DNA of 64,000 bases, taken from assembly GCF_003334405.1 (NCBI RefSeq), contig NZ_QOWM01000010.1. One strand, written 5' to 3'. The position numbers and the translations under genes are program-made. Position 1 is the first letter of the stretch; every line of letters begins with the position of its first letter. This DNA is from Escherichia coli. Lineage in GTDB: Bacteria; Pseudomonadota; Gammaproteobacteria; Enterobacterales; Enterobacteriaceae. The notes below the pieces were generated by a model that worked only from the letters and a program-made list of their open reading frames with translations, had not been told where the DNA came from and searched no databases. Below are positions 56,448 to 58,203 of the stretch, one piece after another.

Positions 56448-57644
56448 ATGAAAACCTGGATATTTATCTGTATGTCCATAGCAATGTTGCTATGGTTTTT
56501 AAGTACGCTAAGACGTAAACCCAGTCAAAAGAAAGGCTGTATTGACGCCATTATACCTGCGTATAACGAAGGCCCGTGTCTGGCGCAGTCACTGGATAAT
56601 CTACTGCGTAACCCTTATTTTTGCCGGGTAATTTGCGTTAACGACGGCTCCACGGACAATACCGAAGCGGTTATGGCGGAAGTCAAACGCAAATGGGGCG
56701 ACCGCTTTGTTGCCGTCACGCAAAAAAATACCGGTAAAGGTGGTGCGCTGATGAATGGCCTCAATTACGCCACCTGCGACCAGGTTTTTTTAAGTGATGC
56801 CGACACCTATGTTCCGCCCGATCAAGACGGAATGGGCTATATGCTGGCAGAAATTGAGCGCGGTGCCGATGCCGTAGGCGGCATTCCCTCTACTGCGTTG
56901 AAAGGCGCGGGTCTGTTACCGCACATCCGCGCGACCGTAAAGTTGCCGATGATTGTTATGAAGCGCACGCTACAGCAGCTCCTGGGTGGCGCACCGTTTA
57001 TTATCAGCGGTGCCTGCGGGATGTTCCGTACTGATGTATTGCGTAAGTTCGGTTTCTCGGATCGTACTAAAGTCGAAGACCTTGATCTCACCTGGACATT
57101 GGTGGCAAACGGCTACCGTATTCGGCAGGCGAATCGCTGCATCGTATACCCACAGGAATGCAACAGCCCGCGTGAGGAGTGGCGTCGCTGGCGGCGTTGG
57201 ATTGTGGGATACGCGGTCTGTATGCGCCTGCATAAAAGACTTTTATTTAGCCGCTTCGGTATCTTCAGTATATTTCCTATGCTGTTGGTTGTGCTTTATG
57301 GCGTTGGGATTTATCTCACTACCTGGTTTAATGAATTCATCACCACCGGGCCGCATGGAGTGGTGTTGGCAATGTTTCCGCTTATCTGGGTCGGCGTAGT
57401 TTGTGTTATTGGTGCTTTTAGCGCCTGGTTTCATCGTTGCTGGTTGTTGGTGCCTTTAGCGCCGCTTTCCGTTGTGTATGTATTATTAGCTTATGCCATC
57501 TGGATTATTTATGGACTTATTGCCTTTTTTACTGGACGCGAACCTCAGCGCGACAAACCCACCCGCTATTCCGCACTGGTGGAAGCGTCAACCGCTTATT
57601 CCCAACCTTCTGTCACAGGAACTGAAAAACTATCTGAAGCTTAA
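56448..57644 (+). CDS. yaiP: Membrane-bound family-2 glycosyltransferase YaiP
   Basis: 398-aa ORF: N-terminal TM, GT-A motifs (CVNDGSTDNT, LSDADTY), a W/R-rich segment (REEWRRWRRW), and C-terminal TM helices; 9 bp after yaiS stop. Confidence 0.88.
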   Translation: MKTWIFICMSIAMLLWFLSTLRRKPSQKKGCIDAIIPAYNEGPCLAQSLDNLLRNPYFCRVICVNDGSTDNTEAVMAEVKRKWGDRFVAVTQKNTGKGGALMNGLNYATCDQVFLSDADTYVPPDQDGMGYMLAEIERGADAVGGIPSTALKGAGLLPHIRATVKLPMIVMKRTLQQLLGGAPFIISGACGMFRTDVLRKFGFSDRTKVEDLDLTWTLVANGYRIRQANRCIVYPQECNSPREEWRRWRRWIVGYAVCMRLHKRLLFSRFGIFSIFPMLLVVLYGVGIYLTTWFNEFITTGPHGVVLAMFPLIWVGVVCVIGAFSAWFHRCWLLVPLAPLSVVYVLLAYAIWIIYGLIAFFTGREPQRDKPTRYSALVEASTAYSQPSVTGTEKLSEA

Positions 57645-58203
57645 TGTTAAAGAGAAAAATATTCAGATTGCAGACCAGGTAATTATTGATGAAACTGCAG
57701 GTGAAGTTGTTATCGGCGCGAATACCCGTATTTGTCATGGTGCCGTTATTCAGGGTCCGGTAGTGATTGGCGCAAACTGCCTGATAGGTAATTATGCGTT
57801 TATTCGTCCTGGCACAATAATCAGCAATGGCGTAAAAATTGGTTTTGCCACCGAGATTAAAAATGCGGTTATTGAAGCGGAAGCAACGATTGGTCCGCAA
57901 TGTTTTATTGCCGACTCGGTAGTTGCAAACCAGGCATATTTAGGCGCACAAGTACGTACCAGTAATCATCGTCTGGATGAACAGCCCGTGTCTGTTCGAA
58001 CTCCAGAGGGAATTATCGCTACCGGATGCGATAAATTAGGTTGTTATATCGGGCAGCGTTCACGCCTTGGCGTACAAGTTATTATTTTGCCTGGGCGAAT
58101 TATTTCCCCGAACACGCAACTTGGCCCGCGCGTGATTGTAGAACGTAATTTACCTACCGGAACTTATTCACTCCGACAAGAACTTATCCGTACAGGAGAT
58201 TAA
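57493..58203 (+). CDS. yaiX: Hexapeptide-repeat (left-handed beta-helix) putative acetyltransferase YaiX, intact
   Basis: 236-aa frame with LbH repeats (IGANTRICHGAVIQGPVVIGANCLIGNYAFIRPGTIISNGVKIG...); frame is open for about 150 nt inside the yaiP 3' end; candidate starts are ATG 57493, ATG 57511, TTG 57520; start unresolved. Confidence 0.7.
   Translation: MPSGLFMDLLPFLLDANLSATNPPAIPHWWKRQPLIPNLLSQELKNYLKLNVKEKNIQIADQVIIDETAGEVVIGANTRICHGAVIQGPVVIGANCLIGNYAFIRPGTIISNGVKIGFATEIKNAVIEAEATIGPQCFIADSVVANQAYLGAQVRTSNHRLDEQPVSVRTPEGIIATGCDKLGCYIGQRSRLGVQVIILPGRIISPNTQLGPRVIVERNLPTGTYSLRQELIRTGD

Follow-up and report, generated by a model that had tools for sequence, protein, structure and literature searches.

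Where does translation of yaiX begin? The question is raised by a 64,000-nucleotide stretch of non-K-12 Escherichia coli chromosome (contig NZ_QOWM01000010.1, called the window below at its full length), in which the gene order is tauA, yaiS, yaiP, yaiX, yaiO, frmR, frmA, frmB. The reading frame of yaiX, which encodes a left-handed beta-helix (LbH) acetyltransferase, enters the 3' end of the glycosyltransferase gene yaiP out of frame and offers no ordinary start codon near the yaiP stop. We propose, at a probability of roughly 60%, that yaiX is functional and translated separately, and that its start has been relocated to ATG 57511, so that the gene encodes 230 amino acids and overlaps yaiP by 134 nt.

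The initial annotation had described the yaiX frame as open for about 50 codons inside yaiP, with no canonical start near the yaiP stop. Both observations stand. The frame is +1 relative to yaiP and open from 57490, that is, for 51 codons upstream of the yaiP stop (TAA, 57642-57644); the open reading frame (ORF) counted from its first ATG occupies 57493..58203 and has 236 amino acids. Its canonical starts are ATG 57493, ATG 57511 and TTG 57520, and the next is only GTG 57763, with no in-frame ATG, GTG or TTG at all in 57521-57762. Around the yaiP stop, the in-frame codons are CTG (57610, 57622, 57634), CTT and ATT (57568, 57661, 57667). A strong Shine-Dalgarno sequence precedes none of the upstream ATGs. 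Is an open frame of this length meaningful? In neighbouring genes, 24% of 50-codon windows are open in the +1 frame, so the event is not rare by chance. Hence, the feature in E. coli alone lies within chance, and its meaning has to come from comparison. The features on which that comparison turns are as follows.

56448..57644, plus strand: yaiP, family-2 glycosyltransferase (GT2), a PgaC/IcaA-like synthase of 398 amino acids (TIGR03937, E=9.8e-29; RefSeq annotation)
57511..58203, plus strand: yaiX as proposed here, a stand-alone LbH acetyltransferase
57493..57510, plus strand: six extra codons from the upstream ATG 57493, which give the 236-amino-acid ORF of KEGG and PMC13058169
57502..57504, plus strand: GGA, a weak Shine-Dalgarno-like element (the conserved Trp codon TGG with the A that follows it) 6 nt before ATG 57511, with a putative role in initiation
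57510..57536, plus strand: frozen synonymous block, yaiP codons TAT GGA CTT ATT GCC TTT TTT ACT GGA, beginning at the Tyr codon that bears the ATG
57511..57576, plus strand: segment A, 22 codons that extend the YaiX N-terminus in this lineage only, MDLLPFLLDANLSATNPPAIPH, and overprint the conserved YaiP motif YGLIAFFTGREPQRDKPTRYSA
57568..57570, plus strand: ATT, in frame, a possible near-cognate start, at which the K-12 pseudogene feature of the Prokaryotic Genome Annotation Pipeline (PGAP) begins
57574..57576, plus strand: CAC, where the ancestral yaiX start codon stood
57577..57582, plus strand: TGG TGG, the Trp-Trp pair (WW) that invariantly follows the start codon across the YaiX family, and at which the selected frame switches
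57577..57644, plus strand: segment B, WWKRQPLIPNLLSQELKNYLKL, in which the yaiX frame is under purifying selection and the yaiP frame is a variable read-through tail
57585..57587, plus strand: GCG, at +8 from WW, where non-enterobacterial yaiP has TGA (equivalent by ungapped alignment)
57610..57624, plus strand: CTG 57610 and CTG 57622, the RefSeq/PGAP starts of E. coli yaiX, both inside the conserved YaiX segment
57679..57681, plus strand: GTA, which in other E. coli lineages is GTG and there the PGAP start (174 amino acids)

The junction in relatives of E. coli

We compared 29 related loci overall, with 15 loci coming from a scan of species-representative genomes and 8 from exact protein look-up; positions are counted from the first Trp codon of WW. 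Seven loci are proteobacterial and non-enterobacterial (Pseudomonas viridiflava, Acinetobacter, Sphingomonas and several metagenome-assembled genomes [MAGs]). The yaiX start is an ATG or GTG directly before TGG TGG in nine of nine non-enterobacterial loci, and the TGA of yaiP stands at +8 in all seven that have an overlapping yaiP-like gene. In non-enterobacterial proteobacteria the two genes overlap by 14 nt, ATGTGGTGGNNTGA. About 7 nt upstream of the yaiX start, seven loci carry a Shine-Dalgarno-like purine run of the (G/A)AGG type (AAAGAG in L018), formed by Arg-Tyr codons of yaiP, and the C-terminus of the yaiP homologue there reads ...TGxEPxRDKPxRYxxVVx. The start thus lies within a few nucleotides of the upstream stop in these relatives, as expected of translational coupling, and does not in the window. 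Metagenomic homologues of YaiX (about 206 amino acids) all begin MWW. Two loci from the candidate phyla radiation (CPR), L014 and L015, begin MWW or VWW and have no overlapping glycosyltransferase, and WW therefore belongs to YaiX.

A separate observation concerns codon choice in these relatives. Roughly 10 nt upstream of the yaiX start in L010-L018, the Arg of the YaiP motif P(T/E)RY is encoded by the rare codon AGG, even in GC-rich genomes. Since this AGG forms the yaiX Shine-Dalgarno sequence, the choice of codon would be dictated by the ribosome-binding site of the downstream gene.

Enterobacteria present another picture. The 15 enterobacterial-type loci comprise the window, E. whittamii, five Citrobacter-like loci, Superficieibacter, three Salmonella loci, two Enterobacter loci, a MAG and a fragment at a contig end. 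In none of them is the codon before WW a start; it is CAC, TAC, CCN, CGN, GCA, CTA or CAT. Wherever flanking DNA was examined, AGG is replaced by CGN. The TGA at +8 is lost as well, and yaiP stops at +14, +29, +50, +65, +74 or +80. What all 15 loci do have is an ATG at -66 (-63 or -69 with a one-codon indel) followed by an unbroken frame to WW. This ATG, number 57511 in the window, exists because YaiP has Tyr/His-Gly at that point, encoded (T/C)AT GGN. Similarly, the TGG of the Shine-Dalgarno-like element is followed by A or G in 15 of 15 loci because the Trp of YaiP is conserved.

How could a start codon move by 66 nt? In the ancestor, yaiX would have begun (A/G)TG-TGG-TGG behind an AGG Shine-Dalgarno sequence, with the TGA of yaiP 8 nt past the first Trp codon. 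The enterobacterial lineage has lost the yaiX start codon, the AGG and the yaiP TGA, and YaiX would now be translated from the ATG 66 nt further upstream (57511). The new protein would carry a largely unconstrained leader of 21 residues before its old N-terminus, while yaiP reads past its old stop into a variable tail. Initiation would be internal, in an AU-rich, poorly structured stretch with GGA as a minimal Shine-Dalgarno sequence, and the predicted N-terminal peptide from ATG 57511 is MDLLPFLLDANLSATNPPAIPHWWK, with or without formyl-Met.

Intermediates are preserved among the loci: yaiP stops at +14, +29 and +50, and some lineages have both the upstream ATG and a start adjacent to WW. The latter combination occurs in Sphingomonas L013 and in L012, so the switch could take place without a non-functional intermediate. 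The start may have been relocated before the yaiP tail was extended, an order with which Salmonella L019 (yaiP stop at +14) is consistent.

Selection across the overlap

In which frame is the overlap selected? We counted synonymous and non-synonymous differences in both frames, using one representative per lineage group. In the control stretch from -216 to -66, the ratio was 420/659 in the yaiP frame versus 111/1007 in the yaiX frame, and from -39 to 0 it was 123/142 versus 23/259. Past WW, it is the yaiX frame that is conserved: 109/203 versus 13/296 in the yaiP frame from +6 to +45, and 56/98 versus 9/128 from +45 to +66. The most variable nucleotide is yaiP position 3 upstream of WW (0.61) and yaiX position 3 after it. 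Amino-acid identity and codon-position diversity show the same switch of frame at WW (57577). The yaiX-constrained stretch begins 22 codons before the yaiP stop and 15 before CTG 57622. Hence, YaiX is translated from WW or from a point before it, and a start at or after the yaiP stop is ruled out. Judged from these alignments, the region behaves as a dual-coding overlap of two genes on one strand, constrained for yaiP up to WW and for yaiX beyond it, and the YaiP tail downstream of WW is a passenger. The alignment of orthologues that the initial annotation had called for thus puts the beginning of conservation at WW, upstream of the yaiP stop.

One apparent line of coding evidence was rejected. 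Similarity in the +1 frame extends upstream of WW, but loci that start MWW show it too, L010 among them (FTDWARCLLAANSAATSRRGTPVWW). Off-frame resemblance upstream of WW follows from the conservation of YaiP in this part and is no evidence of translation.

Synonymous sites in the yaiP 3' end, the other comparison suggested beforehand, were scanned in a codon alignment of ten lineages (264 usable columns, windows of 8 columns). The minimum of the whole gene falls on yaiP codons 355-363, where variation is 0.15 against a mean of 0.59 (rank 1 of 257 windows). It is here that the last two bases of the Tyr/His codon and the next G make the ATG of yaiX, and the last base of that Tyr/His codon is T throughout. 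In 10 of 10 lineages the two Gly codons of the block are GGA; GGA accounts for 19% of the other Gly codons in these yaiP genes and for 0 of 28 in L022. The same positions vary in non-enterobacterial loci (GGA, GGC, GGT). The yaiP codons just upstream of the block vary freely, as do the synonymous sites of 57493-57510 between lineages. The Leu-Ile pair in E. coli must be written CTT or CTC because CTG, TTG, CTA and TTA would create a stop in the yaiX frame.

The same region is unusually uniform within E. coli. Over 57462-57604, 99.5% of about 4,860 records are at least 99% identical, compared with 54%, 41% and 34% for three yaiP windows and 18% for a yaiX window of equal length, and eleven sampled sequences contain no segregating site in it. 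Across yaiX, 23 of 33 segregating sites fall at codon position 3.

Could the upstream ATG and its open frame be by-products of the YaiP protein sequence? We held YaiP fixed and redrew its synonymous codons with locus-specific usage. The probability of an ATG with an open frame was 0.08-0.73 per locus, with a product of 2e-5 over 11 lineage groups; these values are approximate because the groups are not strictly independent. Four-fold-site identity between most groups is about 0.2-0.4, near saturation.

At the RNA level, the predicted opening energy of the mRNA at 57511-57520 is among the lowest 6% of positions across 56900-58300. A search of 57200-57800 for sigma-70-like sites gave none, and an internal promoter for a separate or leaderless yaiX transcript was accordingly discarded. 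Rfam gave no match at E<=1. A single terminator-like hairpin occurs at 57448-57464, a count within chance expectation.

Where else yaiX might start

Public databases hold at least five different starts for E. coli yaiX, giving 236, 230, 197, 193 and 174 amino acids. RefSeq/PGAP takes CTG 57622 (193) or CTG 57610 (197), and GTG 57679 (174) in strains with GTG in place of GTA. The Prodigal/ENA-type model P0001, with 1,737 member sequences, has 230 amino acids from ATG 57511, whose equivalent PGAP itself takes in Salmonella, Enterobacter and Citrobacter (229-233 amino acids). Among the CTG-start models, P0008 begins MKNYLKL. Models in KEGG and GenBank have 236 amino acids from ATG 57493, and a 2026 overexpression study used this form and remarked on the missing Shine-Dalgarno sequence (PMC13058169). 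Selection in the yaiX frame from WW onward contradicts the CTG and GTG starts of RefSeq. We conclude that the yaiX starts annotated in thousands of public E. coli genomes are probably wrong.

Just at the yaiP stop, an ATG in the third frame (57644) overlaps the stop as TAATG and opens a 12-codon ORF, MLKRKIFRLQTR, which ends at TAA 57680-57682; this TAA overlaps the GTA/GTG codon that PGAP takes as the yaiX start in some strains. We considered the ORF as a translational relay and rejected it: the ATG occurs in E. coli only and is thus not conserved across genera.

The initial annotation had raised the idea that yaiX initiates deep inside yaiP. Selection from WW, the ATG with its open frame in 15 of 15 loci and the synonymous minimum at the ATG support this, but the conserved start is 57511 and not 57493. 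We infer that ribosomes initiate at 57511 in preference to 57493, TTG 57520 or a near-cognate codon.

Several points weigh against a start at 57511, in addition to the interdependence of lineage groups in the resampling. The second half of the YaiX extension evolves as yaiP-only sequence with unconstrained amino acids, so that only the avoidance of stops and the requirement that WW be reached speak for its translation. Some other function at the level of the RNA might account for the frozen block. In four lineages an ATG lies 6-12 nt upstream of WW, and the aligned codon in E. coli is ATT; a second, weak start close to WW may operate in addition, and Escherichia may also use ATG 57493. There is no strong Shine-Dalgarno sequence at ATG 57511 (also remarked in PMC13058169), and initiation there would have to compete with ribosomes elongating through yaiP. 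We found no Ribo-RET or N-terminomics data for yaiX initiation: the TRAINSPOTTER supplements mention neither yaiP nor yaiX, and literature mentioning yaiP, yaiO or yaiS had nothing on the yaiX start.

Might YaiX instead start at a near-cognate codon just upstream of WW, ATT 57568 in E. coli, with the upstream ATG and open frame as by-products of YaiP sequence and codon choice? Such a protein would not lose the conserved WW segment. L007, L020, L021 and L022 have ATG at the aligned codon and L019 has TTG; PGAP chooses this codon as the start in Superficieibacter and Enterobacter sp. (P0033, P0036), and its K-12 pseudogene feature begins with it; and the yaiP Tyr374 codon, TAT in nine of nine lineages, keeps AT(N) in the yaiX frame. 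However, the rate of initiation at ATT and ATA in E. coli is about 1% of that at ATG, or lower; this codon is ATA in four lineages; and the sequence upstream (cccacccgct) holds no Shine-Dalgarno element. A start at ATT 57568 would also leave unexplained the synonymous minimum 57 nt further upstream and the ATG with an open frame in 15 of 15 loci. We regard it as improbable.

A start at ATG 57493 in Escherichia (236 amino acids), alone or together with 57511, ranks a little lower. Following the in-frame TAG, this ATG comes first; both E. coli and E. whittamii have kept it, and its predicted accessibility is moderate (16th percentile). Yet an ATG at -84 occurs only in the window, L004 and L023 (Escherichia and C. 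cronae) and is missing from most other lineages. In at least six (L008, L009, L019-L021 and L024) the yaiX frame opens only at -78 or later. No Shine-Dalgarno-like element accompanies this ATG, and the free variation of its downstream synonymous sites up to 57510, described above, also speaks against it.

Lower again we place termination-reinitiation, with YaiX starting from a non-canonical codon at the yaiP stop or beyond it (CTG 57610, 57622 or 57634, or ATT 57661); the upstream open frame would then be a product of chance. In E. coli, PGAP annotates CTG 57622, CTG 57610 or GTG 57679; the similarity to characterised LbH enzymes sets in at about residue 48-54 of the 236-amino-acid ORF; the region of CTG 57622 is predicted to be accessible; and, as noted, a 50-codon open +1 frame is no rarity. 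Nevertheless, the yaiX frame is selected upstream of these CTG codons (109/203 versus 13/296 from +6 to +45), and WW does not vary between CPR bacteria and E. coli. The codons near the yaiP stop come after the conserved YaiX segment WWKRQxLIPxxLxxxLKxYLKL, which tells against the non-canonical or re-initiating start there that the initial annotation had entertained; a protein made in that way would be without residues WWKRQPLIPNLLSQE. AlphaFold2 places short helices with rising confidence (predicted local distance difference test [pLDDT] block means of 65-87) in the segment after WW. Finally, the yaiP stop lies anywhere from +14 to +80 between lineages and no start codon keeps a fixed relation to it, which makes termination-reinitiation coupling unlikely.

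Least probable by far is a programmed +1 frameshift in yaiP (for example at GCC TTT TTT ACT) that yields a YaiP-YaiX fusion, with the frozen block as its recoding signal, or else a remnant of an ancestral fusion as previously suggested: the block does contain a T6 run and the ancestral arrangement puts the codons for the YaiP C-terminus next to those for the YaiX N-terminus, but the run is broken in E. whittamii and L019-L022, no in-frame stop or rare codon marks the putative shift site as in prfB-type frameshifting, Rfam matches nothing there, a frameshift does not need the invariant ATG (kept even where Tyr becomes His, CAT), and the ancestral state is two genes with a 14-nt overlap, three longer relatives (P0134, P0237 and P0238) having no similarity to YaiP.

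If the relocated start at 57511 is accepted, what might the frozen block and the leader do? Taken together, they would allow that 57510-57536, with both Gly codons as rare GGA, is a dedicated internal initiation element in a membrane glycosyltransferase gene, setting a low, fixed YaiX:YaiP ratio with neither a Shine-Dalgarno sequence nor coupling. The leader MDLLPFLLD, in which acidic residues are kept at positions 2 and 9, would then be a de novo functional peptide that, for instance, docks YaiX onto the cytoplasmic C-terminus of YaiP. This elaboration is tentative and on balance unlikely.

The protein, its locus and known systems

Matches to Pfam PF00132, PF25087 and PF25084 on all close homologues place YaiX among the hexapeptide-repeat LbH acyltransferases, and its matches in the PDB are the LbH domains of ST0452, GlmU and LpxD. 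YaiX-type proteins have WW, invariant TSNHRLD/KLG/LPGR columns and a gene between a PgaC-like GT2 and yaiO. YaiX of the window has all of these; the exception is the start codon directly before WW, which the enterobacterial-type loci lack. As a stand-alone LbH protein (about 206-230 amino acids), YaiX does not belong to the bifunctional TIGR03992 (Arch_glmU)/NF041173 family, scoring 129 bits against a cutoff of 292 and matching the LbH part only. Among 1.84 billion representative proteins searched, the strongest matches were mostly stand-alone proteins of about 200-230 amino acids or short fragments, with some of about 305; weaker matches include proteins of about 400-440 amino acids with a C-terminal LbH match, which we tentatively read as GlmU-like. 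The AlphaFold2 model of 230-amino-acid YaiX (75-sequence alignment) has a mean pLDDT of 82.7. Confidence is below 50 in the 21-residue extension, 65-87 from WW onward and above 90 in the LbH core, which is built of regular short beta-strands.

The two outer genes of the cluster complete the feature list.

55767..56438, plus strand: yaiS, PIG-L family deacetylase of 223 amino acids, intact, first in yaiS-yaiP-yaiX-yaiO (NCBIfam BshB1-like, E=8.5e-23)
58205..58978, plus strand: yaiO, outer-membrane beta-barrel, last in the cluster (TIGR04390, E=1.2e-53)

The order yaiS-yaiP-yaiX-yaiO is kept in seven non-enterobacterial and eight further enterobacterial loci. In L014 and L015 (Candidatus Kaiserbacteria/Paceibacterota MAGs, about 3350-5350), the order is yaiS, yaiX, GT2, with no yaiO, and the GT2 is distant (24-28% identity to YaiP). 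The presence of yaiS- and yaiX-like genes in CPR loci suggests that the deacetylase/acetyltransferase pair is older than the proteobacterial four-gene cluster.

Is yaiX functional where it is intact? In K-12, the gene is split by an IS2 element. Repaired K-12 yaiX is reported to promote clumping, a phenotype that also requires yaiP (EcoGene 3.0; PMC3531124), and intact yaiX is therefore functional.

The yaiS gene has an annotation problem of its own. Its ORF of 223 codons is intact both in the window and in L001 (968-1639), yet PGAP flags the gene as an incomplete pseudogene in L001, L002 and several other strains, apparently because the 39-amino-acid small protein YkiC is annotated antisense within its 3' end. 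K-12 (L034, 147-818) is a true case, its yaiS being interrupted in frame by a stop (KHKS*ERRD). In many E. coli genomes, flagging yaiS as a pseudogene seems to be an artefact of annotation. A count of segregating sites in yaiS (37%) was set aside, as we believe it to stem from misaligned or divergent alleles.

The region is absent from about 510 of 5,426 complete E. coli genomes; some genomes have up to seven copies or partial copies, and 30 matches to it lie on plasmids. P0037 is a 348-amino-acid chimera of TauA-like and YaiX sequence, which suggests a deletion joining tauA to yaiX in some strain. The DNA upstream of frmR (59020-59140) holds a stretch rich in C (cccccccc near 59027) as well as a palindrome that is long and almost perfect, tatactataggggggtatgcattgacatatagaatacccccctatagtata; presumably it is the operator/promoter region of FrmR.

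What follows from a start at 57511? The main practical consequence is a systematic annotation error: the CTG and GTG models of RefSeq cut off a conserved N-terminal segment of YaiX, and thousands of records are affected. For experiments, the conserved start and the required WW segment guide the design of YaiX expression constructs. Two mutations silent in yaiP would switch yaiX off and leave YaiP untouched, which is useful for dissecting an exopolysaccharide-like (clumping) system. For evolution, the locus is a clean and datable example of a 14-nt coupling overlap turning into a 134-nt out-of-frame overlap.

How does YaiX compare with known systems? Its best sequence matches are the C-terminal LbH domains of Sulfolobus tokodaii ST0452, which is also the closest solved structure, and of archaeal-type GlmU (PDB 2GGO, 5Z09; E=8e-23 to 5z09 residues 241-398), and YaiX matches TIGR03992 at E=1.8e-37 over profile positions 233-393. 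The YaiX model shows the same hexapeptide beta-helix pattern. Unlike ST0452 and GlmU, YaiX lacks a nucleotidyltransferase domain, carries at its N-terminus about 30 residues, beginning with WW, that are specific to its family, and is encoded in a cluster with a deacetylase, a synthase and an outer-membrane barrel. At the level of initiation, the in-frame ATT 57568 recalls infC-type AUU starts and sits where several relatives have ATG; unlike in infC, it has no Shine-Dalgarno sequence.

The non-enterobacterial yaiP-yaiX junction is a short coupling overlap of the 4- to 14-nt kind (ATGA, TGATG-type), with its Shine-Dalgarno sequence inside the upstream gene. The E. coli junction differs in that the yaiP stop has no start codon close enough to it. 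Long overlaps in annotations are mostly errors. The situation at this locus is reversed: a curated pipeline avoids the overlap by choosing CTG starts, and comparative evidence favours it. Long out-of-frame overlaps on one strand arise when a start is lost and an upstream in-frame ATG is recruited, or when the upstream gene loses its stop (overprinting and overlap-origin models). Both routes are visible at this locus, with yaiX extended at its 5' end and yaiP at its 3' end, and the new YaiX extension lies in the +1 frame of a conserved protein motif while being itself almost unconstrained. Unlike typical long overlaps, this one has a 27-nt frozen synonymous block marking the new yaiX start. We conclude that the yaiP-yaiX overlap is a known kind of long overlap, formed by migration of a start and a stop.

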